A stretch of 62,420 nt of DNA, the filler included, from Sphacelaria rigidula (taxonomy: Eukaryota), in NCBI GenBank assembly GCA_964200075.2. It is 4 parts of 4 records of this genome, joined end to end, with 100 filler letters (N's around TTAATTAATTAA, not from the genome) between each part and the next. Parts side by side here need not be neighbours in the genome. Positions count along the whole stretch, not along the records: positions 31,264 to 46,792 come from CAXNAA020001710.1; 3 more parts are not named here. The stretch is one strand, 5' to 3'. The notes under the pieces were generated by a model that made no database searches, was not told the origin of the DNA, and saw only the letters and a list, made by a program, of their open reading frames with translations. Shown piece after piece: positions 33,668 through 61,154 of this stretch (position 1 is its first letter; each line of letters starts with the position of its first letter). A program made the position numbers and the translations under genes.

Positions 33668-35001
33668 ACATATACACCTGCACGTTGCACTGTGGTACGT
33701 CCCACATCCAAAATGCAACATCCCCTTGTGATTCAGTACAGCACGATCACACGCCCAGCCAACCCTGGCTCGCGTATTTGGTCTTGTTGCCCCCTTCTAC
33801 CTGTCAGGGCAGGTCTTCTACTACAGGTTTGTTACAGACCGCCAGTGCACAGGGTGCACTATTGCCCATAATCAGCCCCTGTTCCTGACCTGAGCTCCTT
33901 GCCAAGTCAACAATCTGCCGTTTCCATATTTCAGTATCGGATACACGGCTGTTGCATCTTTTGTTCACGGGTCGCTGAGCAACACAACCCGTACTCCCAA
34001 AACAGGTGACAACGGACATCTGCACACGAGATTTGTAACCGTTCCAGCACTTTCGCTGCGTCGCGATCTACGTCACTCGTAGCTACTTTGTTGTTGCTCT
34101 TCTCTTCTGGTGTGCTTCGCACAGCTGTAGAGCAGCACTGTACATCACCGCGGTAAGTAACAATACACAGCACAACGGACTGTGACGTCTTTCTCATTGA
34201 CCCCCCTCTCGGCAAGATAATAGTTAATTGTTCCGAGATAGTTTCGTCACGATAACACTCGTTTGTAACATTCCAGACCTACGTTACGTGCTCACTTGGA
34301 GACGGCACTCGAAACCAGTGCCCCTTGCCTGTGTACTACGTTTCCCGGCACCCGTCCTCAGCGTTGCCCCTGCTGCGCACAACTTCAACTTTGTTTAATA
34401 TACGGACGTTGTCCCAACTTCATTGTGTAGCAAGCTTTTGCCCTGCACTACGCAGTCCGATCTTGCGGTCAAGATCCCAAGTTTTGGAGAAGCTTCTGTG
34501 CTGCCCTACGCAGCACGACCATTCGGTGCTCACTTAAATTTTTCAGTGAACACCGCCAGTTGTTTCTCAGCTTGTGCCGGGATAATACAGTTATAGTCTG
34601 TCCTTGACGCCACAACCGGAACACGTGTGAGTTGTACTACTTTCACGTACCAACGCTGCTACAGGCAATTGGATTTTCGCCTTCTTCGACGCCGAACGTC
34701 TGTTCTGTGCGCTATCCCGAGCTTCCGTCGATAGCTATTACCGCCAAAACTTAGGTAGTTGTATTGACCAGACCCCCGACATTGTTGTTGCATACAATAA
34801 TTAGCTTGAATAATAATCCTCGAGTTCATCAGGTTCCCAAGGTCCCCCCAGGCGCTATTAGGCTTCATTTTCACGTATTTCCGGATACAAGCTTCGGCCG
34901 TTGCACTTAGAATTTCTTGGTGTCGCGCTCCTTTGATTAGAGCCCGGCGACCAGACACACTGCCCGTGCATTTTTAAGCACAAAATTTGCGTACGACCAT
35001 C

Positions 35002-38000
35002 ATGTCGCACAGAAATAACGCTGGCTCTTCCCCTCAATTGGGAAATCAATCGCTTCGTCTGACACGGAGTCAAACCACTGGCGGTTTGAAATCTTTTGAT
35101 ATGCATGTCACGTCACCTCCAACTCTTCGACGCACGTGTGCGAGCGTTGTTCGATCTTCGGGATCTGAAGACCAACCTTCGAGCGATGCTCGTTCTTCGA
35201 GGCTTGAAGAAAAGACTATGACGCCGCGACCTGTTCTCTCATGTACCGATTCGGACTTAGAGAACAGGCTTGTGCCACTGGCTGAGTTATTGGCTCCTGA
35301 CGGACATGTCAGTGAAACCATAACGGTGGATTCCGTAGCACCCTCCTCGCTGCGGCCTGTTCTTACGAATCCCAATGTGGAATCCGAAGTCAGGATTGTG
35401 CCCCCAGCTGAGTCGTTGCCCCCGGCCACACGTGTCCGGTTCGGCCCTGTAACGGTTGCTTCAACCGTGGCACCCAGTCGTATGACGGCTGACACCTCTC
35501 GAGACGACTCAGTCTCCACGAAGCGTATCGCTTCTGAGTCATGCTACGATAGGGGGGGGGATTTTGGGCCGCTTTCTCCCACGAAAGTTCACTTCATTCG
35601 TCGTTGAAAGCAGCCAACGATTGTTCGGACGCGCTTGCGCTCAATAAATAGCGCTTATTCATACTGCTTGACACCGCTTTTACCCAATTACACGCGCACC
35701 GCAAGCGTCTTAGGTTGTTTGACGCACCGATGAGCCCATTTTTTGGTGGAATCAACCCCCCTTCCCCCTTTCGCAGCATGACGCTCCTGGAGCAAGAGAC
35801 TGTGTCACGTGGGCTGCTCCCGTTACGGACCCCTACCGCACGACTCTCGGTAGTCCCGTGCGCCCTACTGCGCAGTCCAATGTCGGACCAGCAGTCGCGA
35901 CCATGCCTTCTGCTCTGAAGACTATGCATCGCACTTCATCGGCGTTGGCGCACTCGCCAGCCTCACCTCTCATCGAGGCATTCACGGCTTTTTGCCAGGC
36001 CACGCTCCAAACCAATCGGCATCTGCTCACGTGCAATTCAACGATGATTCTGCACCTGCCACGCCCACACCCGTACGTTTGGCGCCCCGGTCGGCGACAT
36101 CTCGTCCTCCGTTTGTCACTCATGAAAAATTTCACGAACATGAGGCCAGCCCCTCCTCGACGTCGAAGCAGAGTCTTGCTCGCGCTCCTGACCGGCGCCG
36201 CACACCGAAGTTGATCACCACCACGTCACCCGTGCTGGCAGTTCAAAGGATAACTGCCAGCAAAGCTTGAATTCATGGCGTATTTTTACACGCCCGAAGA
36301 ATGTTGCTCATGGTCGTACATATAACCGTAGCTCATGCCACACTTCCAATTTATCACGCGCTCAGAAGCGCCCGGTGAATGTCAACCGTGACCGTACTCA
36401 CGAGGATGATTCGCGGTACAGATCAAGCTCATCGCGCGTTCACTCGCGCTTGAAGAACACCGATCATGCAACCGCGCGCACCCCTCCTGCTCTACCTCCG
36501 TCACGCCGCCGTTATTCACCCGATGATAACATCGTACATGCGGACGATATTCAAAATATATTGTCAGACATGTCACCGGCTCTGGAATCCTCAATTGAGG
36601 GATCCGGTCGCACTTCATCGTAAAACCGACGACCCCGCAATGACCGCGACCCACCGTCCCGCTCCCACGCTGCGATTATTCTTTCGCTTCGACAACGATT
36701 GACAGATCTCGAGCGACAACTATCAACAATGCCGACCTCAAGATCCACTGCCGCCGTCGCCAAGACCACGAAGAAGACCCCCGGCGTTACTGCAGCTACT
36801 GTTGCCGCTACAACCGCCGCTGCCGCCGCTGCTACCTCGGCCGCTGCGCATTCTGCCGCCCCCACGACGGCCCCGACACCCGCTGCCGCCCCATCTGCGG
36901 TTGATACTGACGCAGGTAGTGGCCCATCCACTGGCACAGTCGCGGGTGCCCCCCGTGCGCTCGCCCCCGTCTCTGGAAGATCTTCCTTCGCTCGGCGACG
37001 AGCATTGCCCTATCGGGCTGCTGTTGAGGCTTTTCAGGGACCACCCCCGTGTGAAACAACTGGAACTCATGAACGATTATGCCTCATATGCGCCGGCGCT
37101 GGCCCACGACGTCCTCGAGCAACAGAGGGAGGCCGACGCCACTGCGGCACGCGTCATCGCCGAAGAACACGCTGCCAAGCATCTAAACCTCCAGCGCCAG
37201 GCTTCACGGGCTCAGGCTACCAACTCCGCGGCTCAACGCGCGCTACATGAAGGTTGGCGGCTTAGCAGCGCGTTCAGGACCTCGAGGAGCATGCCCGCCG
37301 AACTGCAAATGACGCGGCCACGTCGGTGGCTCGTCGCTCACCATCCAGTCTCTCCGCCGTCCATCGGCAACACGCCCGGTGGTCGCTCTCACCGCCGGCC
37401 AACGGCCAGTACGTCTACGTACGTCATCCCACGCAAAACAGACGACACGTCGTATGCCGCGGCTAGCTCGGTGGCCGATGCCCGCCTGACGCTAGGTCTG
37501 CAACTGGCGCCTCGCGAACGAGTGTGGCTTTCTCGTTCCACGGCCGATCATACCGCCTACTTCCACAGAAGAAACCCCCTCCACTGCCCCCGCGAGGCCT
37601 GGAACCTAATTTCGCAACGCATGCTCTTCGCTGTTAGTGTTTACGTGGAGCAGGGAGGCTTCTTCCCCGACGAAGGCGTATCGGCACTCACCTTGGGCCA
37701 ACTGGTCTTCCAAACGACTATCGGCGATCACCCGGATCACCAGTGTTACGTCGCCGCTGTCACCGATCGTTTTGCGGCGTTACGCGCCGCTTACAACCCT
37801 GATCCCGGCGCCACCATCGCTGACGATGACGAAGATGAAGGTGGGTGGACTTCCGCAAGTACCAACTGCCGGGGACATAAGAAGAACCACCGACGGGATG
37901 ACGACGACAACGATGGAGGAGACTCACGCCGCCGCCATGGTGGTAGAGGATCTCTTCGGGCGGCTTCGCACCAAACCGCCCGGCTCGCAACCCTCGCGGC

Positions 38001-39646
38001 CCGCCTCTCAAGAACACCGGAGGTGATTCTTCTGGATCTTCCGCGACAGGCTGGAACCGGTCTGGTACAGACCTGCTCCCCTCGGGTCCGGCGACACCAA
38101 GGCAAGTGATCCCTAAATTGGCTGATATTCCGGCCTGCATTTTAGGCTTATCTGATTCGGACACACCTGACCGTCCATTATCTTCTACTGCAGCCCCCGC
38201 TTTAGCAACCGCTACGGCTGACAAAGAACGCTCCGAAGCTAGTAAAAAAGCAGCTTCCAATAGAGCCGAGTCTGCACGAGTAGCTGCAATACAGAGACAG
38301 TATGTTCAGATGGATGGGAAAAAGCTCTGGCACATTAAAACCATGCCTGCTGCGGATAACGAAGATTCGGGCCAGTTTACTTTTGCCCTCATCACGTCCA
38401 TTCGCCGCACTGTTTGTAACATCCTTCACTTGGCGGATGCAACTGGCACACAACGTTCCGAAGATTCCGATTGGGTAGAGGGTGACAGACTCCCTTGCAT
38501 AGAGCATTGCATCGATCCATCAGTCGCCGCTCTCCCGACATCGCTGCCTCTTTAACACAGATCCTCGACGGCTTCCCCGCCGGAATGGATCCGGATCGTG
38601 CCGAGGGGAAGACAGGCCCGGTGTTGCTCTCTGATTTGGAGAGGCGTTTAACAGGCTACTTTGGCAGAAGTGACCAAGCCAGCGCCATCCAGAGGGTGAG
38701 GTTTTTGCTGTTGCATCGGATGTCCCCTTCGCGGACTATCTCCGCGAATTTAAGCTTTTGGTTTCTGGTACCACGGGTGTCGGACGCCAAAACGGACCGA
38801 GCGATGCAATGTGTCAGACTTACGTTCGCAATAGCGCTGCTCAACAGTATCCGGCTCCGATGCCGTCGTTGTTTCTGGGTGTCTTGGCGCATCGCGAGGT
38901 GCCTTACGCCTCTGTTGATACTATGTGGTCTGCTTTCGTACACCAAGAGGGTAATCTAACGCCGGTCATACGCTTCTACGTCTATGCGTTCACAACCTAC
39001 GGTCGTATCCTCCGCTCATGCTCAAGGGGCTCGCGGCAGGAATTCGAGCTCATCTCGCGCTTCATGGATCCCCGACTCGGTCGCCGGTTCAGTTGTGCAT
39101 GCTCAGAGTGCCAGAGATGCATCCAGTGCGAGTTTCGATGGATGGTCGTTTTCCGAGGAAACTTGGGATGATATTTGTTTGACTTCAACAACGGCATTCA
39201 TAGCCGATTACCCCCATTTGTGGAACCCACTTTTTTCGTCTTCCGCTAGACGTAATGCCTTCAGCAGTCATGTCAACAGTTGCATCAACTGTAGTGTTCA
39301 AGGCCACAGCATGCGCGACTTTGACAGTCCATGCATCAATGCCTTTGATCTCATGAACCCTGAATTGCAGGACAATAAACCCGCGTGGCGCCAATGGCAA
39401 AAACGCATACGCGACTACTGCCCACCTAATCGAAATTACCGTAACCATTCGAATCAACGTGGAAACAAAAGCTCTAGTCGCGGTCGCCGACAAAACAACA
39501 ATCACGCAAGCCTTCGCCAGAATGAGAAACATTCTGGCGACAACAAACGTTCCGCTGATAGACACCAGCGGACGGGACCGACACAAAGCCCGAATCCCAA
39601 CACCAGAAACCCTGGTACCTTCACTACGGATCACCTTGATCCATGA
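35002..39646 (+). pseudogene. gag: Gag polyprotein (very long, disrupted)
   Basis: ATG context shared with copy 2 (MSHRNNAG). Capsid-like VASDVPFADYLREFKL segment near 38710-38760. Zinc knuckle CINCSVQGHSMRD(F) at 39281-39322 with the last Cys mutated. Frameshifts and a MITE insertion. Confidence 0.8.
35536..35784 (+). mobile_element. MITE family A (249 bp) inserted in gag; 4-bp TSD TTCT/TCCT
   Basis: TIRs GAGTCATGCTACGATAGGGGG / CCCCCTTTCGCAGCATGACGC. Copy 2 shows the empty site ATCGCTTTTGGAGCAAGAGAC (minus strand, ~57480-57500). Confidence 0.9.
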
Positions 39647-42600
39647 CGTGCCAACGCTGGCATTCTCCGGTCTTCCACGCCGCCGATAGCACGAGCGAAG
39701 ACTTTCTCAACACAGTCCGCGGAGTCCGTGTCTAAAATTGCTCACTCGACTCCCCCGGCACAATCCAGGAGCGTAACTGATGGCCGTTCAAATCGACCCC
39801 CGTTTCCAACCTCCACACACTTTTCAATACAGCCCGCAGAGCCCGCGACTAGGATTGTTCGCCCGGCTCTCCCGGCACTATGCAGAAGCGCAACTGACGA
39901 CCGTTCATATCGACCCCCGTCTTCACCCCTTCACACACCGCCTAACACTTCTTTCACCCCACTACTCAGACCTACACCCGGCTTTGAACCTAGTCCTTCA
40001 GTGCCATGTATAAGCCTAAGGTGTGGGAAGACCAATCGCCAGTCCCTGAGGCAGAGGCTTCCCTCAGCGACCGCACGCACAGGTAGTAGCAAGCCTTCTT
40101 CAGCTGACCCAAGTGTTGCTGATTTGAACTTGACCACATCGCATCATGCAACTCCCAATCAGTTGGATCGAGCTCCTTCCCCGCGATTGTCAACACGCAC
40201 AGACCTACCTTCGGTCGGTTCTGATAACACCCGCCCTAACATATCTTCGGCTATGACCCAACAGCCAAGCTTGCCTACGGAAAGCAGCCCACAAGTTTCG
40301 ATCCGTCATGCCCCGATGCTGACCCCATCCGCACAAGTGGACGCAGTTGTGGTTTCATCCAAAAATGTTTTGGAAGTTCCCCGACCTTTGTCGCGGCGAA
40401 AGAGAAAGCCCCGTAAGCATGACCCCAAGGACGCGCGCGCATCATCACGTACACCTCTTTCGAGCGGAAATCCTCGATCTCAACCTCTCCAAAATTGCGA
40501 CGACTTTGAGTTCGGCGGTTCTATCAAGTATCCCGGAAGAAACAAAAAAAAATTCTGACGGCACTACTTCCTCAATCGACAACTCCAGTTTCGCACATTC
40601 TGGATCCCCCTTGGTCGGTGATCCCTGTCAACCAAAGACGATCATTTACGACATCGCCAATGGCCATTCTGACCGTGCCACGCCTGGAAATAATATACCG
40701 TCCACCCGCTTCTCTGGTGAGACATCTGACCCACCAGCGGACCACCCGCCGTGCGTTTTTGCTGTCAGCCCCGCTGATCCTGACCAGTGTACCTTGCCGG
40801 AATACGGTCCGGGTTTTGTCGGTGGTAAAGTGTCTGTAGATTCGGCCACTTTCACTACGCGCGTTGGGATCCATTGCGGTCCGAACGCTATCATGCCTGC
40901 GAAGTGCGTATCCTTGTTGGACAGCGTCAGCCCGCAAACATTTGTTCGAGAATCAACATGGGAACACATAAAACAGACTGGCGCTGCTACTGACGCTTGC
41001 GAAACCACCACCCAACCTCGAGTATGGGGCGGTTTCGGTGATTCTGCCGCACCACTGACGACACGTAAACCCGTACGTCTCAGTGTACAATTTTTTCACG
41101 ACACCACTCGATCTGCCAGCCTGGCAGTCTGGGCATACATTGTCCCCGACAACACAATGCATCACGCCATATTATTGGGCTGAGATAGCTATATGCGGTT
41201 TCATAAAGGCACCTACCCCACGTTTCCACCACTAGCGCCACATTCCACGCCTCGTGGAGAATTCAACCTCGAACACTTTGGTACTCTCCACGGCGCCTGG
41301 CCCACCAGGAGAATACCCAAGCAAACGGAGCTGCTTACCACCTACGTTACAACGGTAGCGTTGATATTACACTCTCCGACGGCCCCCAACTTCTAGAAGT
41401 TGCACTAGTTCGCCGAAATGGCATGCCAGCACTTACGGGCCACTATCTTGCCGAATCGTTACCCCCTATTGGCGCACCAGTCGACACAAAACATCTTGTG
41501 TCGGCGGGACAAGAACTCCCCCCTCTTACGGGTCATGCTAATTTGGAACCCAGCGATGTTTTAGGAATCGCCGCTGCTCCCTGATGCGCATCCCACTTGA
41601 GATGTGAGTAACAGAGTCTGCCGCGCCAAACGCCACATCTCCGGCGGAGTCAGTCCATTGTGTCGATGAACCTTATTTCGACCTCGCCTCTGCGACTCCA
41701 CCCCAGGTTCACACTGTGGATCTTGCCCAGTCAAATTCCGATCCTCTTGCTGAAGTGCTTCAACGCTCATCACCGGATTCTCGGAGAAATTTCTTGCACA
41801 TGTGGAACCAACTGCCGTCACACATGCGCGACATCAAATTTGACATTCATGGGCCCGGCTGGAAACCGGAAGTCATCAGAGAACTCGGTGATGTCCTGCT
41901 ACAGTACCAAGACCAATTTTCCCGATCCAAGACGGATCTTGGGCATTGTAAAGCACTGCCCTTTGAGGTTACCCTCCAACCCGGCGTCTCGCCGATTTCT
42001 TCTCGGCCATACCGAACAAAGCCGATCCTTACCAAGAAAGTTGACGCCACCTTGGATGCGTATTCGGGAGCGGGAAGGATACAACATTCCTCTTCTCCTT
42101 GGACCTCGCCCCTTGTGGTCGTCCCCCAAAAGGATGGAAACATACGCATAACCGTGAATTGTCAACGGTTGAGCCGGGTCACTGTGGTCGGGTCACTTCC
42201 AATTCCCCGCATTGATGAACTCTTCGACTCCCTAGGCGAAAGGAAAAATATTCGGCACCTTCGACCTCGCTTCTGGATGTTTCCAGAATACCATTCACCC
42301 TGTCACAGTCCCAAAGACGGCCTTTTGTACCTCGTCCGGACTTCACCAGTGTCTCCGAATGCCACAAGGCGCCGCCACTGCCCCGGGATGCTTTCAACGC
42401 TTAATGCAAGGCGCCATCGAGGGCCTCGAGCACATCATGATGTACCTGGATGACGCTATCGCTTTCGATGCCGCACCTATTGCACACATACGCACTCTAC
42501 GAGAATTTATCTCTCGCCTACGCACGCACGATCTGAAACTGTCTCCATCCAAAGCTCGCCTTGGCGCGACTGACTTGGGTTCCTTGGGGCATTCCTTTTC

Positions 42601-45600
42601 TCCAGCAGGCCTGCATCCGGACACAAAGTCAAAGCGATGGCTGACTTGCCGATGCCAACTAACATTTCTGAACTTCGCTCATTGTTGGGCGGGCTACCCT
42701 AGTACCGAAATGTTTTGCCGAATTTATCGAAACGGATTCGCCCCCTTACTGAGTTACTCAAGAAAGGAGCCGTGTTTTCCTTCACAACCGAAATCGAGAA
42801 TATTACCCGCGAATTACTCAAGACGCTTACCGGAAAGCCGGTTCTTTGCTTTCCGGATTGGCGGGCAGTACAAGATGGGTCCCGTCTTTTCCAACTCCAT
42901 ACTGACACCAGCACGAACGGGTTTGGACGAGTTTTGGATCAACTTCAGGTTGATGGCTCCGTCCGACCCATCCTCTATATTGGCCGCGCTACCCTGCCCG
43001 ACGAGGCCAATTGGAGCCCGCTAGAACTGGAAGGCGGAGTATTCACTTGGGCCATCCAGCGCCTTCGACAATACCTGTTTCACGCGCCCTTTGGCATATA
43101 TACGGATCACGGAGCACTCGAAAAACTCGCCAAGGTTGGCGAACACAACCTGTGTGTACAACGATGGTTGGAGTGTTTAACAGCATATCAGTGTACCATT
43201 AAGCACCGTCCAGGCAAAACCAACGGAAACGCTGATCTTCTTTCTCGCCTTCTCCTGCCGCCTACGGCCGCAGATTCCAGCCCGGCTTGCGGTTTAACGG
43301 AACCCGATAAGCCCAGAATATACGCGATTAGACGTTTTTCAACGCCCGTTTACGCCCTCGACCTCCAGTGCCCGGAAACCGGTACGCATTTGGGAGGACC
43401 TCGCCCTCTACCATATGACGCCATCTTGGGTGGGTTAAAGCCCACTACCTCCGATTTTGTCGATTTCCGCACTTTCGGTACTCGCGTGCAGCTCTTCGCG
43501 GAGACACCTCCAGTCACCCACCATATCTCTGACAGCACCCGCTCCCTGTCTGCCGCCTGCACCACACCGAGTGCCCCGCCGCCACCGATAACACCTGCAA
43601 CCTCTACGAGCCACCCAGCACAAACTCCACGGACCAACACGCCACGCTCAGTGAAACGTTCTGCAACGTGCACCACGCGCCGGGGACAGTCTTCGCCGCG
43701 CGCTGTTACAGCCCCGCCGCCTATAACGGCGCCGCAAACATCTACTGCTCCCGAGCTCGGGACTGGCGAGTTAGCTCCTGCGCCCGCGACAGATACTGAC
43801 GTCCGCATTTCTGCCCCGTCGCTTATTCCCCCGCCGCCTACCCCGTCATGTTTGGTCGGCTCGTCAGCGGAAGGTCAACTACGCGAATTTCTCACCAGCT
43901 ACTGTCACCGCGATTGGGCTCGCGAACAAACCGCAGAATCGCTATGTCGCGCAGCCATGCGGTACTTACAACTCGACTGTCCAGTCCCTTTCCCATTCAC
44001 ACTTCTGGCCCCGGTTGGCACACTGCCACCACGAGTTATTTCTGACGTATACGAGCTCGTGCGTAAAGGCACCCTTTTTACTACGGATGAAGGTGTGCAA
44101 CCACTCGTGCATTGGCCCACGCCTTTGACAGGCGCAATTTCCGCCTCAACCACGGGACGCCACGCATGAATACTCGATGACGAACCAACGCGCATATATG
44201 TGCCATTATTAATGCGTCCCTGGGTCATGAAAGGCTGCCACACCGACTTGTCATGCCACCTTGGCGTCCCCCGCACCCTCGCACTCTTGGAACGCTTCTA
44301 CTGGTGGGATGTCATGGAAACTTCAAACCACTTCCGGATTCGGCGATGCTTCAAATGCCAAGCCCGAAAAACTTCACGACAGACAGTACGCTGGCCCGTC
44401 ATCCTTACGGGACTCCCCGACGAGCCCGGCCACGTTGTGTCCTTTGACTACTTTGGCCCTCTACCGACCACAGGTCGCGGCAACGCCTACATCTTACTTC
44501 TCACTGACCGCTTCAGCCGCCACGCCTCCATGTACGCGGTAACCGCCGCAGATTTCACTGCCGCCGGAACGGTCGACATATTGGTCCACGATTACACTAC
44601 GCACTATGGTTGCCCAAAGCGACTCCTTTTAGATAATGGTCGGCAATTTTGCTCAGATCTCTCTGAGGAGCTTTATAGGCTCCTGGGCGTCTGCAAAATT
44701 GCCACGAGCGCCTACAACCCGAACGGTAACGGTGATACCGAAAGAGTTAATCACACCATGGCCCAAATGCTCTCTATCGTTGTAAATGGTCGCCAAAATG
44801 ACTGGGACCTACATCTCTCGCACATCATGTTGTCCTACAACAACTCGATTAACGCCGCCACAGGCCTTTCTCCGAACGAACTACATCTTGGACGTAACCC
44901 TCGGCTGCCCATCACCGTGTTTGAGCGCCACACGTTCGACGACCACCAAGGATTGTATCAGGATCAGATATCCTACCACGAGCTAGCGCATGCACGACAA
45001 CGCAAAGCGTTTGCCATCGTGCGCGAACAACACGCTATCAACATCTCGCGCCTAGAGAGATCTACACTGCTCTCTACGACCTCATGCACAAACGCCCTAA
45101 CTGGAAATTTGGTGATTGGGTTTGGATCCACAACAACTTGTTGACCATCTGCCAAGGCACCAGCAGGGCAGCCAACGAGACAATTTTGAAGACAAATTGT
45201 CGCTCAATTGGACAGGACCATTCAAGATCCTGATAGTCGGACCATCGTCATCATCCCCAGATGATAAACCAGTTGGTAACAAACTTCTATTTCTCGACTT
45301 GCCTCGCGACTTCCAGGGCAAGGATACCAAACCCCGCGTCTCCGTGCACAGATGCAAACCCTGCACGAACCCGCATGATGCAAGTGACATGCCCAAGTAC
45401 CTGCCTGCCGGACGCACACAGTATGTTCTCAACAGCTACTCGACCAGGTCCCCGCCCTACCACGTGACAACCGACGACGTGACAAAACAGCCCCTTCGAT
45501 TGACCGTGTCCACCATCTCCGGCCACAAGATAAACCGTGGTCGAGGTGGCAAACTCACTGTCACGTATGAGACACACTGGCACGGTCTTCGGAGAGCGTC

Positions 45601-46102
45601 TTGGGAACGCGAATCCGACCTTCAATTGCACCGCCGTGCAATTCTTCTGTACTGGATGCAATCCCAACATCAGCATCTTGCTCACAACAGGAAATATCGC
45701 AACATGCGTCGTGGCGTAGCAGCCCATGAGCTTCACCGCCATCGGGAACTACGCTTTGTCGCCGATGGCTACGAACTTGTACCCACCAAGACTTGAAAGA
45801 CAAAGTTCTTTGCAACCCAGCGAATACTGCCCAAGGGCAGCTACCTTCGGTTCAAAGGCAGCGACAGCCTCTGGTGGTTGGGCCAGACCCACTCCGCCAA
45901 CCTCGTTTCGGCCGACACATACCTCGTGCGCTTCATCGATGACCCTGGACCCATACAGCTTTATCTCCGGCCAGCATTATACACCACCAGCCCATCTGCT
46001 CCACGCGGATACTGGTGCCTCCAGCACCTTAAGTCCAAAGGAATTAGCCGTGGTCTCCAGCGCAACATCGGCCACACCCACGACGTCCACGCCCCGCTTT
46101 GA
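39647..46102 (+). pseudogene. pol: Pol polyprotein: aspartic protease, RT, RNase H, integrase, chromodomain, Tudor-like domain (disrupted)
   Basis: LLDS(V)SPQTFV (~40915); YLDD (42443-42454); LHTDTSTNGFG..LELEGG..YTDH..NADLLSR (42890-43250); HHCC and DDE core FDYFGP/LDNGRQF/ERVNHT (44200-44900); WTGPF (~45208); chromo (~45495-45630); Tudor-like (~45830-46030). Confidence 0.95.
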
Positions 46103-46329
46103 ACTACGCTCCCTTGCCGCAACTGTCCCCCCCCCCATTTTTGTAGCATTGCTTTCCCCCCCTTCTCCACCAGGACCCTCTTCTACGACGACATTACAAC
46201 CGCGTGACCTACATCGGACGACGATCAAGAAGTACTGAGACGACCACCATCTACGACTGCTACAGCTTTAGTATCCCTTTGCGGCTGGCGCTCGATCTCG
46301 TCAGATCACCGACGTTCAGATCTCTGCTC

Positions 46330-46792: not shown

Positions 46793-46892
46793 NNNNNNNN
46801 NNNNNNNNNNNNNNNNNNNNNNNNNNNNNNNNNNNNTTAATTAATTAANNNNNNNNNNNNNNNNNNNNNNNNNNNNNNNNNNNNNNNNNNNN
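46793..46892. other. Artificial contig spacer N44-TTAATTAATTAA-N44
   Basis: Same 100-nt spacer. Confidence 0.98.
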
Positions 46893-47084: not shown

Positions 47085-47222
47085 GTTCTTGATCGTCGTC
47101 CGATGTAGGCCGTGCTATTGTTGTGTAGTAGAAGAGAGTCCTGGTGGAAAAAAGGGGGGGGGGCACAATGCTTACGGGAAAAAAAATGGGGTGGGACAAC
47201 AGTCGCGACAAAGAAGCGTGGT

Positions 47223-50200
47223 TCAAAGCGGGGCGTGGACGTCGTGGGTGTGGTCGATGTTGCGCTGGAGACCGCGGCGAAGTGCTTTGGAGTTGAGGCG
47301 CTGGAGACACCAGGATCCGCGTGGTGCAGATGGGCTGGTGGTGTATAGCGCTGGCCGAAGCTTGAGCTGTATGGGTCCAGGGTCATCGATGAAGCGCACG
47401 ATATATGTGTCGGCCGAAACCAGGTTAGCGGAGTGGGTCTGACCCAACCACCAGAGGTTGTCGCTGCCTTTGAACCAAAGGTAGCTGCCCTTGGGCAGGA
47501 GTCGCTGGTTCGCAAAGGACTTCGTCTTACAAGTCTTGGAGGGTAGAAGTTCGTAACCATCTGCGACAAAGCGTAGTCCCTAGTTGCGGTGAAGTTCGCG
47601 AGCTGCTGCGCCACGGCGCATATTGCGATATTTCTTGTTGTGAGCAAGATGCTGATGCTGGGATTGCGTCCAGTAAAGGAGAATTGCATGACGGTGCAAT
47701 TGCAAGTCGGATTCGCGTTCCCAAGACGCTCTTCGAAGACCGTGCCAGTGTGTCTTATACATGACAGCGATCTTGTCTCCTCGACCACGGGTTATCTGGT
47801 GGCCGGAAATGGAGGACACAGCCAACCGAAGGGGCTGTTCCGTCACGTCGTCGGCTGTGACGTGGTAGGGTGGGGACTTGGTCGAGTAGCTGTTGAGAAC
47901 GTACCGTGTGAGTCCGGCCGGCAGGCACTTGGGCATGTCGCTTGTATCATGTGGGTTCGTGCAGGGTTTGCATCTGTGCACGGAGACGCGGGGCTTGGTG
48001 TCTTTGCCCTGGAAATCGAGAGGCAAGTCGAGATAGAGCAGTTTGTCACCAACGGGTTTTCCATCCGGTGATGATGACGATGGTCCGACTGTCAGGAGTT
48101 TCCTGTCCAATTGAGAGACAATTTTGTCTTCAAAATTGTTTGGTTGGCTGCTTTGCTGGTGCCTTGGCGGATGGTCGACAAATTGTTGTAGATCCAAACC
48201 CAATCACCAACTTTCCAGTTAGGGCGTTTGTCCATGAGGTTGTAGAGAGCAGTGTTAGATTTCTCCAGGCGCGAGGCATTGATAGTGTGTTGTTCGCGCA
48301 CGAGGGTGAACGCTTTGCGTTGTCGTGCATGTGCGAGCTCGTTGTAGGATATCTGATTCTGATCCAATCCTTAGTGACCGTCGAACGTGTGTCGCTCGAG
48401 CACGGTGATAGGCAGCCGAGGGTAGCGTCCAAGATGGACTTCGTTCGGAAAAAAACCTGTGGCGGCATTAACCGACTTGTTGTAGGACAACATGATGTGC
48501 GAGAGATGTAGGTCCCAGTCATTTTGGCGGTCATTGACAACCATAGAGAGCATCTGGGCCATGGTGTGATTAACTCTTTCGGTACCACCGTTACCGTTCG
48601 GGTGGTAGGCGCTCGTGGCAATTTTGCGGATGCCCAGGAGCTTGTAAAGCTCATCCGAGAGGTCTGAACAAAATTGCTGACCATTGTCTGAAAGTAGTCG
48701 CTTCGGGCAGCCGTAGTGCTTAATGTAATCATGGACCAGTATGTCGGCCGTTCCGGCGGCAGTGAAATTTGCGGCGGTTACCGCTTACATAGACGCGTGG
48801 CGGCTAAAGCGGTCAGTGAAGAGTAAGTATAGGTGTTGCCGCGACCTGTGATCGGGAGAGGGCTGAAGTAGTCAAAGGACACAAGGTGGTCGGACTCGTC
48901 GGGGAGCCCCATAGAGATCACGGGCCAGCGTACTGTCTGTCGTGAAGTTTTTCGGGCTTGGCATTTAAAGCATCGCCGAATCCAGAAGCGGCTTACAATT
49001 TCCATGCCCACCCACCCGTAGAAGCGTTCCAAGAGCGCGAGGGTGCGGGTGACGCCAAGGTGGCATGGCAAGTCTGTATGGCAGCCTTTCATGACCCAGG
49101 GGCGCATTAATAATGGCACATGTATGCACGTTGGTTCGTCATTGAGTAGTCGAGCGGTGCTTCCCGTAGTTGAGGCGGCAATTACGCCTGTCAAGGGCGT
49201 GAGCTGACGTACGAGTAGTTGCACGCCTTCATCCGTAGTAAAAAGGGTGCCTTTACGCACGAGCTCGTATACGTCAGAAATAACTGGCGGTGACAGTGTC
49301 CCAACCGGGGCCAGAAGTGTGGACGGAAAAGGGACTGGACAGTCAAGCTGTAAGTACCGGATGGCTGCGCGACATAGTGGTTCTGCGTTTTGTTCACGAG
49401 CCCAATCACGGTGGGAGTAGCTGGCGAGAAACTCGCGTAGTTGGCCTTCCGCTGGCGAGCCGACCAAACATGGTAGGGCAGGCGGCGGGGGAACAGGCGA
49501 CGGGGCAGAAATATGGACGTCAAGATCTGTCTCGGGAGCAGGAGACGAGGCGTCAGTTCCGTGCTCGGGGGCAGAAGATGTTTGCGGCGCCAGTATAGGC
49601 GGCGAGGTTGTATCAGTGCGCGGCGAAGATTTTTCGCGGCGCGTGGCGCACGGTGCTGAAGTTTTTGCGGAGCTTTGCGTGTTGGTCCGTGAAACTTGTG
49701 CTGGGTGGCTCATAGATGTTGAAGGTGTTATTGGTGGCGGCGGGGCACTCGGTGTGGTGCGGGCGGCAGACCGGGAGCGCGTGTTGTCGGCGATAAGGTG
49801 GGTGACTGGAGGTGTCTCCGCGAAGAGTTTCGCGCGAGCACCGAAAGTGCGAAGATCGACAAAATCGGAGGGAGTGGGCTTCAACTCACCCAAGACGGCG
49901 TCATATGGTAGAGGGCAAGGTCCTCCCATATGCATACCGGTTTCCGGACACTGGAGGTCGAGGGCGTAAACGGGCGTTGAAAAACATCTGATCGCGTCAA
50001 TTCCGGGTTCATCGGGTTCCGTTAATCGGCAAGCCGGGCTGGAATCTGCGGCCGTAGGCGGCAGAGGCAGGCGGGAAAGAAGATCCGCGTTCCCGTTGGT
50101 TTTGCCTGGACGGTGCTTAATCGTATACTGATATGCTGTTAGAAATTCCAACCATCGTTGTACACGAGGGTTGTGTTCACCAACCTTGGCGAATTGTTCA

Positions 50201-53200
50201 AGTGCTCCGTGATCCGTATAGATCTCGAAGGACACGTGAAACAGATATTGTCGAAGGCGCTTAATGGCCCAAGTGATTACTCCGCCTTCCAGTTCTAGCG
50301 GGCTCCAATTGGCCTCGTTGGGCAGGGTAGGGCGGCTGATAAAAAGGATGGGTTGGACAGAGCCATCAACCTGGGGTTGATTCAAAACTCCTCCAAAACC
50401 ATTTGTGCTGGCGTCAGTATGGAGTTGGAAAAGGCGGGAGCCATCTTGTACTGTCTCCCAATCAGGAAAGCAAAGTACGGGTTTTTCGTTAAGCGTCTTG
50501 AGTAATTCGCGGGTGATAGTCTCCATTTCTGTGGTGAAAGAAAACATGGCTCCTTTCTTGAGTAGCTCAGTAAGGGGGCGAATCCGTTTCGATAGATTTG
50601 GCAAAAAATTGCGGTAGTAGGATAGCCCACCCAACAATGAGCGAAGCTGAGAAATGTTAGTTGGCATCGGTCATAGCCTTGATTTTTCTTGTATCCGGAT
50701 GCAGGCCTGCTGGTGAAATGAAATGCCCCAAGAAATCCAAGTCAGTCGCGCCAAGGCAAGCTTTGGATGGAGACAGTTTCAAATCGTGCGTACATAGGCG
50801 AGAGAGAAATTCTCGTAGAGTGCGTATATGTGCAATAGGTGAGGCATCGAAAGCGATAGCGTCATCCAAGTACATGATGGTGTGCCCGAGGCCCTCGGTG
50901 ACGCGTTGCATTAAGCGTTGAAACCATCCCGGGGCAGTGGCGGCGCCTTGTGGCATGCGAAGCCACTCATAGAGTCCGGACGAGGTGCAAAAAGCCGTCA
51001 GTGGGACTGTGTCAGGGTGTATAGCATTCTGAAAAAATCCAGACGCGAGGTCGAAGGTGCTGAATATTTTGCCTTCGCCTAAGGAGTCAAAGACTTCATC
51101 AATGCGGGGAATTGAAAGTTTACCGACGACAGTGACGCGGTTCAACCGTTGATAATTCACGGTGATGCGTATGTTTCCATCATTTTTGGGGACGACCACA
51201 AGTGGCGAGGCCCAAGGAGAGGAGGAATGTTGGATTAGTCCCGCTCCCAAATACGCATCCAAGATGGCGTTAACTTTCTTGGTAAGGATTGGGTTGGTAC
51301 GGTATGGCCGAGAAGATATCGGCGAGACACCGGGTTGGAGGGTAACCTCAAAGAGCAGTGTCTTGCAATGCCCAAGATCCGTCTTGGATCGAGAAAATCG
51401 GTCTTGGTACTGTAGCAGGACACCACTGAGTTCTTGGATGACTGCCGGTTCCCAGCCGGACCCATGAAGGTCAAAATTGATGTCGCGCATTTGTGGCGGC
51501 AGTTGGTACCACATGTGCAAGAAGCTATTCCGAGAATCTGGTGATAAGCGTTGAAGTACTTTAGCAGGACGATCGGAATTTGACTGGGCAGGATCCACGG
51601 TGTGGACCTGCGGTGGAGTAGCAGAGGCGACATCGAAGTAAGGTTCTTTGACACAATGTACTGACTCCGCCGCAGATGTGGTGTTTGGTGCGGCAGGCTC
51701 TGTGACGCACGTCTTGAGTGGGATGTACATCAGGGGAGCAGCGGCGATTCCTAAAACATCGGCGGGTTCCAAGTTAGCATGGCCCATAGGAGGGAGGAGT
51801 TGTTGTCCCGCCGACACAAAATGTTCTCTGTCGGCTGGTGCGCCAATACGGGGTAACATATCGGCAAGATAATGGCCCGTAAGTGCTGGCATGCCATTTC
51901 GGCGAACTAGTGCAACTTCAAGAAGTTGGGAGTCGTCGGAGAGTGTGATACCCACACTACCGTTATATCGTAGGTGGTAAGCAGCTCCGGTTGCTTAAGG
52001 ATTCTTCTGGTTGGCCAGGGTGCCGTGGAGAGTACCGAAGTGCTCGAGGTTGAATTTTCCATGCGGCGGGGAATGTGGCGTTAGTGGTGGAAGCTTGCGG
52101 TAGGTGCGTTTATTAAACTGCATATAGCTATCTCTGCCCAATAATATGGCGTGATGCATGGTGCTGTCGGGGATAACGTATGCCCAGACTGCCAGGCTGG
52201 CAGATCGAGTGGTGTTGTGAAAGAGTTGCACACTGAGTTTACGGATTTATGTGTCGTCAGTGGTGCGGCAGAATCACCGAAACCGCCCCACACGTGAGGT
52301 TTGGTGGTGGTTTTGCAAGCTGCAGTAGCAGCGCCGGTCTGCTTCATGTGTTTCCATGTTGATTCTCGAATAAATGTTTGCGGGGTACCGCTGTCGAACA
52401 AGGATACGCATTTCGTAGGCGTGATCGAGTTTGGACCGGAATGTATCGCAACGCGAGTAGTTAAAGAGGCCGGATCTACAGACACTTCACCGCCGACAAG
52501 ATCCGGACCATGTTCCGGCAAGGTAAACTGGTCAGGATCAGCGTGGCTGACAGTAAAAACGCATGGCGGGTGATCAGCCGGTGGGTCAGATGTCTCACCA
52601 AAGAAGGGGGTGGACGGTATATTATTTCCAGGTTTGGCACGGTCATTGACGATTTCGTAAATGATCGTCTTTGGTTGACAAGGATCACCGTCGAAGGGGG
52701 ATCCAGAATGTGCGGGGCTGGAGTCGTCGATCAGAGAAGTAGTGCCGTTAAAATCATGTGATTTTGTTTCTTCCGGGATACTTGATAGAGCAGTCGAGCT
52801 CAAATTCGTCGCATTTTGGAGAGACTGAGGTCGAGGATTTCCGCTCCAAAGAGGTGTACGTAATGATGCGCGCGCGTCCTTGGGGGCATGCTGACGGGGC
52901 TTTCTCTTTCGCCGTGACAAAGGTCGGGGAACTTCTCAAACATTTGGGGATGAAACCACAACTGCGTCCAGCTGCGTGGATGGGGTCAGCATCGGGGCAT
53001 GACGGAGCGAAACTCGTGGGCTGCTTTCCGTAGGCAAGCTTGGCTGTTGGGGCATAGCCGAAGATATGTGGGGGCGGTTGTTAGTAAAACCGGCCGAAGG
53101 TAGGTCCGTGCGTGTTGAAAATCGCGGGGAAGGAGCCCGATCGAACTGATTGAGAATTACATGATCCGATGAGATCAGATTCAAATCAGCAACACTTGGG

Positions 53201-53661
53201 TCAGCTGAAAAAGGCTTGCTGCTACCTGTGCGTGCGGCCGCAGAGGGTAACCTTTGCCTCAGTGACTGGCGGTTGGTCTTCCCACACCTCAGACTTATAC
53301 TCGGCACTGAAGGACCAAGTTCAGTGCCGGGTGGAGGTCTGAGTCGCGGGGTGACACAACTGTTACGCGGTGTATGGAGGGATGAAGACGGGGGTCGATA
53401 TAAACGGCCGTCAGTTGCACTCCTGCATAGTGTCGGGAGAGCCGGGTGGACAGTTTAAGTCGCGGGCTCTGCGGGCTGCGTTGAAAATTGTGTGGACGGT
53501 GGAGACGGGGGTCGATACGAGCGGCCGTCAGTTACGCTCCTGGATAGTGCCGGGGGAGTCGAGTGAGCAGTATTAGACACGGACTCCGCGGGCTGTGTGA
53601 AGAAAGTCTTCGCTCGTGCTATCGACGGCGTGGAAGACCGAAGAACGCCGGCGTCGGCACG
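47223..53661 (-). pseudogene. pol: Pol polyprotein: PR, RT, RNase H, INT, chromodomain, Tudor-like domain (disrupted)
   Basis: LFDSGTPQTFI (DSG at 52387-52395); RT ORF 50657-51955 with FSTFDLASGF and YLDD (50861-50872); RNase H to HHCC ORF 48778-50667; chromo ISGHQITRGRGDKIAVMYKTHWHGLRRASWERESDL; Tudor-like at ~47300-47500. Confidence 0.95.
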
Positions 53662-56600
53662 TCATGGATCTAAGCGATCCGAAGTGAAGGTACCAGGATT
53701 TCTGGTGTTGGGATTAGAACTTTGTCTCGGTCCCGTCCGCTGGTGTCTATCAGTGGAACGTTTGTTGTCGCGAGAATTTTGATCATTCTGGCGAGGGCTT
53801 CCGTAATTGTTGTTGTGTTGGCGACCACGATTAGAGCTCTTGTTGCCCCGGTGGTTCGAATTGTTGCGGTAATTTCGATTTGATGGACGATAGTCGCGCA
53901 TGTGTTTTTGCCATCGGCGCCACGCGGGTTCATTGTCCTGCAATTCAGGGTTCATGAGATCAAAGGCAGTGATGCATGGACTGTCACAGTCGCGCATGCT
54001 GTGGCCTTGAACACTACAGTTGATGCAACTGTTGGCATGACTGCTGAAGGCATCGCGTCTAGCGGAAGACGAAAGAAGTGGATTCCACAAATGGGGCTCA
54101 TCGGTTATAAATGCCGTTGTTGAAGTCGAATAAATGCCATCCCAAGTTTCCTCGGAAAACGGCCAATCATCAAAACTCGCGCTAAATGCATCTCTGGTAC
54201 CCTCAACATGCATAACTGAACCGGCGACTGAGTCGGAGGTTCATGAAGCGCGAGACGGGCTCGAATTCTTTCCACGAGCCTCTTGGGTATGAGTGGAGGA
54301 CACAACCGTAGGTTGTGAACGCACAGGCGTTGAAGGTTTGCCACGTATGGCAAGCGTTAGATTACCTTCTTGGTGTACAAAAACAGACCACATAGTATCA
54401 ACGGAGGAGTAAGGCACCTCGCGATGCGCCAAGACACCCGGAAACAACGACGGCATCAGAGCCGGATACTGTTGAGCAACGCTATTGCGGGCGTAAGTCT
54501 GACACATTGCGCCGCTCGGTCCATTCTGGCGTCTGACACCCGTCGTACCCGAAACCAAAAGCTTAAATTCTCGGAGATAATCCGCGAAGGGGACATCAGA
54601 GGCGACAGCAAAAAAACTCAGCCTCTGGATGGCACTGGCCTGGTCACGTTTATCGAAGTAATCGATCATACGCTTCTCCAAATCAGAGAGTATTAGGGGG
54701 CCTATCTTCCCCTTGGCACGGTCCGGGTTCATCTCGGCGAGGAAGTCGTCGAGAATCTGCGTTAAGGAAGCAGCGAGGTCCGGAGAGCGGCGGCTGATCG
54801 ATCGGTGCATTGCTTTGTGCAAGGGAGTCTGGCAGCTCTCTACCCAGTCGGAATCTTCGAAACGTTGTGTGCCAGTCACATCCGCCAAGTGAAGGATGTG
54901 ACAAACAGTGCGGCGGACGGACGTGATGAGGGCAGAAGTAAACTGGCTCGAATCTTCGTTATTCGCGGCAGACACGGTTTTGATGTGCCAGAGTTTTTTC
55001 ACATCCATCTGAATATACTGTCTCTGTATTGCAGCTACTCGGGTAGACTCAGCTCTATCGGAAGCTGCTTTTTTGCTAGCTTCGGAACGTTCTTTGTCAG
55101 CCGCAGCGGTTGCTAAGGCGCGGGCTGCAGAAGACAGGGGACGGTCAGGTGTATCCGTATCGGACAAACCTAAAATGCGGGCCGAAACATTAGCCAACTT
55201 GGGAATCACTTGCCTGAGGGTCGCCGAGTCCGAAGCGGGAAGATCTGTGTCAGACTTGTTCCAGCCGGGTGCCGATGAACCGTAAGAGTTACCTCCGTGG
55301 TTTTTTCGGTGCGGTTTGCGAGGCGGGAGGTTCGGTTCGGAACCGCCCGAAGAGGATCCCCACGGCGTGAATTCCCTCCATCGTTGTCGTCGTCGTCGCG
55401 CCTGTGATTCTTCTTCTGACCCCGGTAATTGGATGTTACGGGAGTCCACCCATCTTCATCGTCGTCTCCGTCGATGGTGGCGCCGGAATGAGTGTTGTAG
55501 GCGGCACGAAGCGCCGCAAAAAGTTGGAGGACCGCGTCAACGCAATTTTGGTGGTCCCGGTGATTGCCAATGGTCGTCTGCAGAACCAGTTGGCCCAAGG
55601 TGAGCACCGAGACGCCCTCCTTGGGGAGGAAGCCGTTCTGTTCGACGTAAACCCCAACAGTATAGAACATACGTTGGGAGATCAAGGCCCATGCGTCTTG
55701 GGAACAGTGGAGGTGGTTTTGGCGGTCAAAAGAACCGGTGTAAGTGGTCACAGGACGAGAAAGCCATTCTCGTTCGTGGGACACGAGTCGCAAGTTTTGC
55801 GCCGAAACGGGGCTCGGCACCGAGCTAACTTCTTGCGGTGGCGGTGTCGGAGGCGCCGTGGCGGCGGTAGCGGTCGCAGCAGACGACGTCCGGTCGGACT
55901 TACGTGGAATAACGTAAGTCGATCTGTTGGGCGCCGGCAGGTGGGTTCTGAGAAAGTTGTTGGCGGAAGGCAGAGAGGCTTGATGGTCGGATAGGCGCGC
56001 CACCGACGAATCCGCTGCTTGGGCTGTCCGCTAAGCATGATCGTCTAGCTCGCGGACCCGTCTTTGGGCCGCCATGGCCGCAGTAAGGCCCTCCTGTAGC
56101 GCTCGTTGTGCCGCCGTGCTCGTGGATTGAGCGTGGGAGGCCTGCCGCTGGAGGTCCTTCAGCATTTCTGCGTGCTCCTCTATAAAGAGGCGGGCAGCGG
56201 CGGCGTCAGCGTCACGTTGCTGACTAAGTATGTTTTGCGCCAATGCAGGCGCCTGAGATGTATAGTCGGCTTGCTCCACGCGGGGTCGGTTTGTGAACGA
56301 CCGTAAGAGTAGGCCGGTCGGGCATTGCTCGTCGCCGAGCGGAGGGAGGACCTCCACGGATGGGAACGGGCGCACAGGGGCAGTTGTGGAACCACTATCG
56401 GCGTCTGTGTCGACGGCCGACGGAGCGGCAGCGGCTGTAAGTGCTGTCGCGGGGGCGGCTGAAGGCGTAGCGGCCACAGTAGCGGCAGTAGTAGCTGCGG
56501 GGGCGCGGGTGGGCTTCGTGGCGGCGGCAGCGGATATGGAGGTGTCCATGGTGGACAGTTGCCTCTCAAGTTCTGTCAAGCGCTGTTGAAGACAACGAAT

Positions 56601-58032
56601 AAGCGCAGCATCGGAGCGGGAAGGTGGTTCGCGGTCAGTGCGTAGTCGTTGGGTTTGCGATGAGGTGCGGCCGGATCCTTCAATTGAGGATTCCGGAGCC
56701 GGTGACATGTCCGAAAATATGTTTTGGATATCATCAGCATGTACAGTGTTATCATTGCGTACATGGCGGCTGTGTGACAGATGCGGAGCAGGAGAGATGC
56801 GCGAGGGTGATGATCGGTGTTTTTCGAGCGCGAGTTAACGCGCGAAGAATTTGATCTGTGCCGCAAGGCATCCTCGCGAGTACGTCCACGGTTAGCATTC
56901 ACCGGGCGCTTCGAAACGCGTGATGAGTTGGAACTGTGACGTGAACTACCGTCGTAAGTGTAGCCATGAGTGACGTTCTTCGGGCGTGTAGAAACGCGCG
57001 ATGAATTCAACCTTTGCTGGGAGTTACCCATAGAACTGCCAGAACGGGAGACGTGGTCGTGACTAAGTCTCGGTGTGCGGCGCCGGTCAGAAGCGCGAGT
57101 ATGGCTCTGCTGCGACGTTGAGGAAGGGCTGGACTCATTTTCGTTGAATTTGTCATGAGTGACGAACGGAGAGCGCGATGTCGCCGAACGGGGCGCCAGA
57201 CGTACGGGTTCGAGCGTGGCAGGTGCAGAATCATCATTGAATTGCACATGAGCAGACGCCGATTGATCTTGGATCGTGGCGCGGCAAAAAGCCGTATGTG
57301 CCTCGATGAGAGCTGGCGCTGGCGATGTCGACGACGCTGATGAGGTGCGATGCCGAGTTCGCATGGCAGCATGCATGGCCACAACTGCCGGTCCGACATT
57401 GGACTGCGTAGTAGGGCGCACGGGACTATCGAGAGTCTTGCGAAGGGGGTCCGTAACGGAAGCATCCCGTGTGACAAAGTCTCTTGCTCCAAAAGCGATG
57501 CGCTTTGTAGGGGCAGAATCGTCTCGAGAGTTGTCAGCCGTCAAGCGACGGGGTGTCACAGTTGAAGCAACCTTTACAGGGCCAAGCTGGACTTGTGGAT
57601 CCAGGGGCGACTCAGCTGCGGGGGCACAATTCTGACTTCGGGTTCTACGTTGGGATTTGGAAAAACAGAACGCACCGAAGGGGGTGCAACGGAATCCACC
57701 GTTATGGGTTCACTGACATGTTTGTCAGGAACCAATGACTCGAATCACTCGGCCGGTCGCGCTACCATGTTCTCTGAGTCCGGGTCGGAACGTGAGAGAA
57801 CAGGTGTCGGCGTCAAACTCTTGTCTTCAAGACTTGAAGAACGAGCTTCGCTCGAAAGTTGGTCTTCAGATACCGAAGATCGAACAGTGCTCGCATACGT
57901 GCGGCGATGAGTTGAAGGTGACGTGCCACTCACCTTAAAAGATTTCGAACCGCCAATAGTTTGACTCCGGGTCCAACGAAGCGGTTGGTTCCCCAATAGC
58001 GGGGAAAAGCCAGCGTTATTTCTGTGCGACAT
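53662..58032 (-). pseudogene. gag: Gag polyprotein (disrupted)
   Basis: MSHRNNAG start; FFAVASDVPFADYLREFKLLV; intact CCHC knuckle CINCSVQGHSMRDC (~53986-54027). Confidence 0.85.
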
Positions 58033-61152: not shown

Positions 61153-61154
61153 AA

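Follow-up and report, generated by a model that had tools for sequence, protein, structure and literature searches.

Stimulation of readthrough at the gag terminator by RNA structure is established for gammaretroviruses, whereas the corresponding cases in retrotransposons either are described without a structure (fission yeasts) or gave negative reporter results (Tca2). Gag-pol readthrough in murine leukemia virus (MuLV) is of type III, with an 8-nt spacer and a pseudoknot suggested to sit at the mRNA entrance (PMC3159437), and reaches 5% (PMC2194720). Type II readthrough, in alphaviruses and tobraviruses, combines UGA-C with a 3' stem-loop under the consensus UGA-CUA/CGG (PMC3159437). Among retrotransposons, Tj1, Tcry1, and Tosmo1-3, which are Ty3/Gypsy chromoviruses of fission yeasts, have an in-frame TGA-C between gag and pol for which readthrough was inferred, and transposition of Tj1 requires the stop (PMC10085805, PMC4600332). 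Skipper and RIRE2 are cited as further cases of an in-frame gag stop (PMC10085805, PMC2754532), Tca2 of Candida albicans (Ty1/Copia) has a UGA between gag and pol with an 8-nt spacer and a predicted pseudoknot (PMC2194720, PMC7175516), and another source treats frameshifting (PMC5009743). Here we describe a gag-pol junction in an element that we assign to a Ty3/Gypsy (Metaviridae) lineage of the brown alga Sphacelaria rigidula. Two decayed copies of this ∼13-kb retrotransposon lie in the window, i.e., the whole 62,420-nucleotide stretch analyzed, which joins four parts of assembly GCA_964200075.2: copy 1, of subfamily A, at 33732..46231 (+), with limits set by the extent of homology to copy 2, and copy 2 at 47086..59341 (−), with its gag ATG at 58032. 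Its gag and pol form one reading frame interrupted by one UGA, and we consider it likely that this UGA is passed by readthrough, probably with the assistance of a pseudoknot.

Both window copies read GAT CCA TGA CGT GCC, as the initial annotation had reported, at 39638-39652 (+) and, on the minus strand, around a TGA at 53664-53662, and the coordinates of all motifs that it listed were confirmed. The UGA of copy 1 (39644..39646, +), in the context CCA-UGA-C, emerged from alignments and a pattern search as the sole shared stop of the gag-pol frame. Other stops before the protease are private, as had been claimed: TAA at +207 and TGA at +726 of copy 2 each occur in 1 of 40 copies. Neither window copy reaches the protease unbroken, but 3 of 42 long copies do (L040, L038, and L035, with 764, 619, and 431 codons, respectively). 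In copy 1 there is no in-frame stop before the protease, yet a frameshift near 40550 closes the open frame after 303 codons; it is the only copy in which the protease, ∼1,270 nt 3' of the stop, is frameshifted relative to it. The subfamily A alignment comprised 40 of the 42 long stretches (the two excluded belong to a divergent subfamily) and 10,017 core columns, of which four have at least 20% stops in frame 0: three 5' of the shared gag ATG and the UGA. From −4458 to ∼+5300 (∼9,800 aligned bases) the UGA is the lone frame-0 column of this kind, while frames 1 and 2 have 88 and 190 such columns over the whole alignment.

A search pattern that left the codon itself free gave 99 matches, which by eye comprised 91 TGA, 1 TAA, and 7 sense codons one base from TGA, and its reversed control gave none, so these matches exceed chance. 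Among unselected copies of subfamilies B and C, the stop codon is intact in 62/64 and the neighboring codons are intact in 57/64 and 60/64, so the pattern matches alone indicate that the source elements had TGA and no more. Selection is seen elsewhere: variants shared by at least three copies favor third codon positions in gag and from protease through integrase (e.g., 2, 1, and 15 at +4200), so that purifying selection acted on pol in stop-carrying lineages. These patterns indicate that the stop is real, family-wide, and selected.

Searches yielded further subfamilies (B, C, D, and E) and two members of a sixth (F); A to E are 65 to 79% identical around the junction and F is 63 to 73% identical. 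All five subfamilies retain CCA-UGA-C at this site. Among 157 distinct junctions, TGA is found in 40/42 B-like, 27/28 C, 4/5 D, and 8/8 E copies and in 65/74 A copies, a count that includes eight non-TGA copies retrieved deliberately, and the base following the stop is C in 154/157. Chance pattern matches without gag or pol (L173-L176, L178, and L179) were excluded. In each of A to E, the UGA is the lone frame-0 stop shared by half of the copies between −600 and +1250/1450, apart from a single column in D (+1158; n = 4), and the other frames have 17 to 39 shared stops each in the same interval. Modal lengths from the stop to a common anchor (294 nt in A and D, 177 in B and E, and 174 and 165 in C, with 159 in two copies) are all multiples of three; variants of ±1 are scattered private indels, and the 293-nt variants of A are distinct private deletions.

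Nucleotide constraint is strongest just 3' of the stop. Identity between subfamilies at 4-fold-degenerate sites is 0.88 at +3..+63, where amino acid identity is only 0.53, compared with 0.77 over the final 60 nt of gag and 0.42 to 0.56 in gag (34 copies, with nonindependent pair counts). Extended synonymous-site conservation (0.74 to 0.80) continues 3' of the predicted pseudoknot at 39710..40105 (+), to ∼+330 in B numbering, and this distal zone folds weakly better than shuffles (z, ∼−2.1). The same region encodes a Ser/Pro/Thr-rich linker with two copies of a 117-nt (39-codon) unit at 39704..39928 (+), of which B, C, and E have one. An overlapping antisense gene was considered and rejected: two antisense frames have shared stops, and the third, with 0 to 2 stops, mirrors the coding frame. 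Taken together, the alignments show one shared stop, the same frame on both sides of it, a functional pol, and nucleotide constraint that peaks immediately downstream of the stop.

Most of the RNA pairings first proposed for this site did not withstand comparison among copies. RNA positions are numbered from the base after the stop (+1), and 149 of the 157 junctions were kept for stem pair counts, leaving out six copies with indels in +1..+57 as well as L059 and L072; 48 of the 157 form alignment A2, and 34 copies were used in stem-position and helix scans. The compensatory A-U/G-C change reported at +7/+12 is present in 1 of 70 subfamily A copies (copy 1 itself), with single-sided changes in seven. 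The CGTGC/GCACG stem (+1..+5/+43..+47) is paired in 62.7% of alignment cells, with its first pair in 11/45 sequences, and the +3..+16 hairpin is paired in 83.6%, but in D and E it lacks 2 to 3 of its 5 pairs. Both were rejected, as pairing is disrupted in whole subfamilies, and we agree with the caveat of the initial annotation that stems starting 1 to 3 nt after the stop, as these do, would lie inside the ribosome footprint. The GTCTTC/GAAGAC pairing is conserved but would belong to a pseudoknot different from that proposed, in which it would be stem 2 and which would start 8 nt after the stop.

In the revised model, an 8-nt spacer (39647..39654, +), in which C at +1 is kept while +2 to +5 and +7 vary between subfamilies, precedes predicted stem 1, formed by +9..+17 (39655-39663) and +31..+39 (39677-39685), with 8 bp and one 1x1 mismatch (39655..39685, +). 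Predicted stem 2 pairs +24..+29/30 (39670-39675) with +50/51..+56 (39697-39702) and crosses stem 1 in H-type topology (39670..39702, +); the loops would be 2 to 6, 0 to 1, and ∼10 nt, and the spacer is 8 nt if a 2-bp stem extension forms and 11 nt otherwise. Stem 1, which RNAalifold chose unaided, is paired in 95.8% of cells, and energies for six natural copies range from −10.0 to −11.6 kcal/mol, although two private changes, at +12 and +16, damage it in copy 1. Among helices of 6 bp or more with no more than one G-U, stem 2 alone is paired in every one of the five subfamilies (1,561 columns). The whole model pairs in 93.1% of cells, compared with 28 to 58% for slid controls. Only 2 of 28 stem positions vary among A to E (U-A to U-G and G-C to G-U, with pairing kept), against 19 of 29 other positions (Fisher P, 5e-6), and bases new in C, D, or E affect 1/28 stem and 14/29 other positions (P, 1.6e-4). 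The 3-nt deletion of subfamily C is located in loop 1, and in two related F-type copies a U-A pair of stem 2 is replaced by C-G through a double change, the corresponding single-sided changes being found in five and three copies. In copy 2 the UGA (53664-53662), the spacer, and the predicted pseudoknot (53653-53606) occupy 53606..53664 on the minus strand with all stem pairs intact. Given readthrough, we lean toward this H-type pseudoknot, beginning 8 nt after the stop, as its stimulator.

The algal junction resembles those of Tj1, Tcry1, and Tosmo1-3, likewise Ty3/Gypsy elements, in separating gag from pol by a TGA-C in frame; the earlier statement that Ty3/Gypsy elements usually use frameshifting or a single open reading frame (ORF) thus understated the precedent (PMC10085805, PMC4600332). 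In the available descriptions of the fission yeast elements, GAA-TGA-CT (8 nt) alone is reported as conserved and no structure is described, whereas the algal elements have CCA-TGA-C, variable +2..+5, and a 60-nt structured block, together with a linker of ∼400 codons before the protease, a Gag of ∼1,480 codons, and a host from a different kingdom. With MuLV it shares a Gag terminator and, in its predicted structure, an 8-nt spacer and a compact H-type pseudoknot with conserved loop nucleotides. MuLV, a retrovirus, has UAG-G and a purine-rich spacer, in contrast to UGA-C and a C-rich variable spacer in this retrotransposon, so that algal junctions fall outside the type III definition of UAG-G with a purine-rich 8-nt spacer. 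As in type II signals, UGA-C is followed by (here predicted) structure after an 8- to 9-nt spacer and by extended synonymous-site conservation, but CGU, CAU, CAC, and CGC, rather than CUA/CGG, follow the algal UGA, and a predicted pseudoknot replaces the long stem-loop. Tca2 has the same arrangement of UGA between gag and pol, 8-nt spacer, and predicted pseudoknot; it is a Ty1/Copia element without evidence of conservation across several subfamilies in the sources available, in contrast to the five subfamilies of this Ty3/Gypsy element. In its probable function the algal sequence is a signal for gag-pol readthrough that combines the stop context of type II with a predicted pseudoknot of the MuLV kind; by sequence it belongs to neither class.

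Under the proposed mechanism, Gag and Pol would lie in one frame split by one UGA, at which most ribosomes would stop and release a Gag of ∼1,480 residues. A minority would decode the UGA as an amino acid and proceed across the low-complexity linker into protease, reverse transcriptase, RNase H, and integrase. By analogy with MuLV, readthrough might occur at a few percent and would give a high ratio of Gag to Gag-Pol. As has been suggested for MuLV, the pseudoknot would act at the channel through which mRNA enters, and the conserved zone reaching +330 may contribute. That ribosomes pass the UGA by readthrough, helped by the leaky UGA-C context, is in our view quite likely. The candidate readthrough site of the initial annotation is thus retained on firmer ground (in-frame UGA-C in five subfamilies, a single shared stop, an open frame, triplet indels, and purifying selection), although most of the pairings offered in its support were wrong. 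If this is correct, no recoding signal would have been reported earlier for brown algae, as far as the searched literature goes. Five natural versions of a single compact signal, with stems predicted to the base, make bypass of an in-frame gag stop in retrotransposons directly testable.

Several observations weigh against this explanation. Covariation is not above that of shuffles (141/500, with one double change among 45 distinct rows) because the stems are nearly invariant. The pseudoknot model was derived from the same sequences, first from A and B, and was written down after C to E had been seen. RNAalifold and single-sequence folds give one stem or other nested folds, and an unbiased scan recovered stem 1 only as a 5-bp helix shifted by 3 nt, with no crossing pair at the 6-bp threshold. 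A 300-nt Tca2 junction of similar appearance gave no readthrough in Saccharomyces cerevisiae reporters (PMC2194720). Within subfamily A, the first 900 nt 3' of the stop have no third-position excess, though the frame stays open. Finally, two related older copies, L052 (G000:C9259) and L057 (G000:C19640), both have TGC (Cys) and share 17 doubleton alleles, the second-highest number for any pair, so a small sense-codon lineage may have multiplied; most other non-TGA copies are placed beside TGA copies in the tree.

Some of these points would equally suit readthrough that depends on UGA-C, the nascent peptide, or distal RNA only, with the pseudoknot unformed or serving as a packaging or dimerization element. 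This possibility, which overlaps the first step of the explanation that we prefer, gains from the lack of covariation, from alternative folds of similar energy, and from the fission yeast elements, which keep only 8 nt around TGA-CT in the description available (PMC10085805). Constraint is nevertheless highest precisely over the two crossing stems, which start 8 nt from the stop as in MuLV, and we regard pseudoknot-independent readthrough as the less likely account. An old nonsense lesion in a nonautonomous lineage mobilized in trans, or a UGA read as a sense or selenocysteine codon, would fit the decay of all copies and the fact that the codon is kept among copies no better than its neighbors. 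A lesion is excluded by purifying selection on a pol that has no shared stops 3' of the UGA, and the stop is older than the split of five subfamilies, none of the searches having found a sense-codon subfamily. A single shared TGA in ∼3,250 codons rules out that UGA is an ordinary sense codon, and an Rfam scan of 31264-62420 gave no SECIS-type match, so explanations of this type seem extremely unlikely. Frameshifting around the stop was rejected because, with stops at −8/+43 and −52/+89 in subfamily A, two shifts would be required.

Removal of the stop by weak splicing deserves closer attention. A donor GT at −29, in the Gly codon of the PG motif described below, together with YAG at +41..+43 would delimit an in-frame intron of 75 nt (72 in C) with matching phase in all five subfamilies, which is a further point against readthrough. 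Alternatively, a farther donor could be joined to a pyrimidine-preceded CAG near +180; such a phase-0 CAG is present at +177 to +189 in all subfamilies with 62 to 81% pyrimidines upstream. Splicing might also account for conservation of +40 and +42..+45, which are unpaired in the pseudoknot model, and for synonymous constraint that extends to +330. The donor context is poor, however (GTACC, GTTCC, or GTTCT, with G at +5 in no subfamily), and the donor has changed to GC in 7/33 B and 5/27 C copies, against a background of 3/99 and 1/81, GC copies often being nearest neighbors. An open frame and triplet indels would be needless inside an intron, and splicing would truncate the conserved PG[TS]F motif at its end. 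Contigs of three runs span the stop ungapped, and none of the 15 listed joints, out of 62, removes it; as the RNA status of these runs was guessed and only 15 of the 62 joints were listed, this counts little against an intron. On balance, splicing in either form appears unlikely. A separate Pol, made from an internal promoter or by reinitiation at an ATG near +550 or at the AUG overlapping the stop (CC-AUG-A), is consistent with the presence of the AUGA overlap in all subfamilies and of an in-frame ATG at ∼+550 (B numbering), the first common to all of them and 5' of the protease. The conserved DNA to +330 could be a promoter, and a minor junction promoter is known in Tca2 (PMC2194720). The overlapping AUG lies in the −1 frame, however, which closes after 2 codons in E and 30 to 45 codons elsewhere, and AUGA stop-restart was rejected as a route to pol given its immediate closure in E. 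The ∼180 to 220 codons before the shared ATG are open in frame 0 everywhere, against 5 to 12 shared stops in each other frame, and a free Pol would need its own route into particles, as argued for Tca2 (PMC2194720). Separate expression of Pol consequently seems quite unlikely.

The readthrough interpretation places the end of Gag at the UGA. ORF1 (gag) spans 35002..39643 (+), with ∼1,480 codons, and is broken in copy 1; its ATG is common to 17/17 covering copies and lies 4,434 nt 5' of the stop in the alignment of long copies. This Gag is unusually long, with ∼1,000 residues preceding the capsid-like region, and distant relatives of equal size exist (P0160, 1,507 amino acids [aa]; P0292, 1,484 aa). 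No Pfam family matched Gag; resemblance of the capsid-like region to Retrotrans_gag (Atlas score, 0.90) is a lead only. Translations reveal a Cys/His motif ∼360 nt 5' of the stop, which we take to be a CCHC zinc knuckle, at 39281..39322 (+), where its last Cys is lost in copy 1, and intact at 54027-53986 (−) in copy 2.

A peptide motif, NPNxRxPG[TS]F (39593..39622, +), is found in all five subfamilies seven residues before the stop, conserved at the extreme end of otherwise divergent, low-complexity Gag tails. A Gag profile search yielded 460 relatives; among the best 150, which were scored for the motif, 13 have it, and all 13 end 3 to 11 residues later. Nine further members of the P0130 cluster, known from proteins alone on contigs as long as 1 Mb, stop at this point as well, and protein P0003, from outside this genome, terminates at the identical Asp-Pro. 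The motif might act as a signal in the nascent peptide, as a protease site, or in binding. That the clade independently evolved a gammaretrovirus-like, pseudoknot-driven UGA switch coupled to this motif and to the extended 3' element is a doubtful proposition at present; if true, it would represent composite peptide-plus-RNA control of termination, which is not described for any retrotransposon.

Searches beyond the family added little. No relatives were found in DNA of other species among viral contigs or, by protein, among metagenomes, and 119 loci from a metagenome pattern search included none resembling gag or pol. In searches for more distant families in the same genome, the best identity was ≤60% with P0007, 44% with P0126, and 38% with P0128, and the contigs recognized belong to the same clade. 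No fused Gag-Pol protein was present among candidates of 677 to 2000 aa, a null result of little weight, since the fusion would have ∼3,600 aa. P0242, the sole match to both gag and reverse transcriptase, has 392 aa and no protease, looks like a deletion, and was rejected.

Large Gypsy elements are known from other brown algae. Families of 13 to 14 kb with "gag & pol ORFs" are described (PMC12477816), including Ectocarpus lineage IV, e.g., Gypsy-12_Ec32, with ∼14 kb, "gag & pol ORFs," a chromodomain, and NADAR (PMC12477816). The present element resembles lineage IV in its large size, gag and pol ORFs, and chromodomain (a weak signal here), but has a low-complexity linker in place of NADAR at the Pol N terminus. 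NADAR (PF08719) is missing in P0001 and present in its relative P0030, and the nearest reverse transcriptase relatives that carry it are 48 to 50% identical. In other assemblies P0030, P0038, P0041, P0048, and P0050 have NADAR where this family has its Ser/Pro/Thr-rich linker, and their possession of NADAR suggests that these pol relatives belong to Ectocarpus lineage IV. ECR-1 has a single ORF and is of a different lineage (PMC11541908, bioRxiv 10.64898/2025.12.07.692804). The words "stop codon" and "readthrough" are absent from the text and five supplements of PMC12477816 as available, which cover 60/83 Gypsy places. The searched literature, which leaves most subscription papers and Repbase notes outside it, holds no report of readthrough in a retrotransposon of brown algae or other stramenopiles. 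In-frame gag stops in Ty3 elements (Tj1 and Tosmo) and pseudoknot readthrough in MuLV are thus already known, and no published account of the two combined in brown algae was found. For annotators, "gag and pol ORFs" in large brown-algal Gypsy elements may be a single readthrough unit.

Downstream of the linker, the domain order of protease, reverse transcriptase, RNase H, and integrase is that of Ty3/Gypsy elements, based on Pfam for the last three and on Atlas features for the protease. RVT_1, RT_RNaseH, Integrase_H2C2, and rve mark reverse transcriptase, RNase H, integrase zinc finger, and integrase core, in that order, at 42242..44721 (+). The aspartic protease region lies at approximately 40800..41200 (+), with the catalytic-motif position near 40920, and was recognized by an Atlas match to retroviral aspartyl proteases (score, 0.92); Pfam and PDB sequence searches gave no match there. 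A weak chromodomain signal in copy 2 near 47819-47670 is below the cutoff (Pfam Chromo E value, 0.071). The closest named reverse transcriptase homologues are from S. rigidula (82%) and Ectocarpus (44 to 46%). Long terminal repeats were not located, as neither window copy has a terminal direct repeat and no analyzed stretch covers the whole element, and no tRNA genes were found.

The two copies are 77 to 84% identical (self-BLAST, 33732-46231 versus 59341-47086) and come from different contigs; joints between the window parts (15534-15633, 31164-31263, and 46793-46892) consist of 44 N, a 12-base spacer, and 44 N. The gag gene of copy 1 contains an insertion of ∼245 bp (35536-35782) that other copies lack at that site and that we assign to a small mobile element; related sequences (69 to 81%) occur at 1893-2120 in the window and elsewhere in L033, L074, L083, and L158. 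Where copy 1 ends on its 3' side, close to the end of the contig, a near-perfect hairpin of ∼85 nt (46465-46552), to which an Rfam scan gave subthreshold microRNA-like matches only, forms the center of an inverted duplication of ∼400 bp (46300-46710), which may be a foldback, a head-to-head insertion, or an assembly artifact. A degenerate tandem array with ∼13 copies of a 62- to 63-bp unit occupies 61153-62361.

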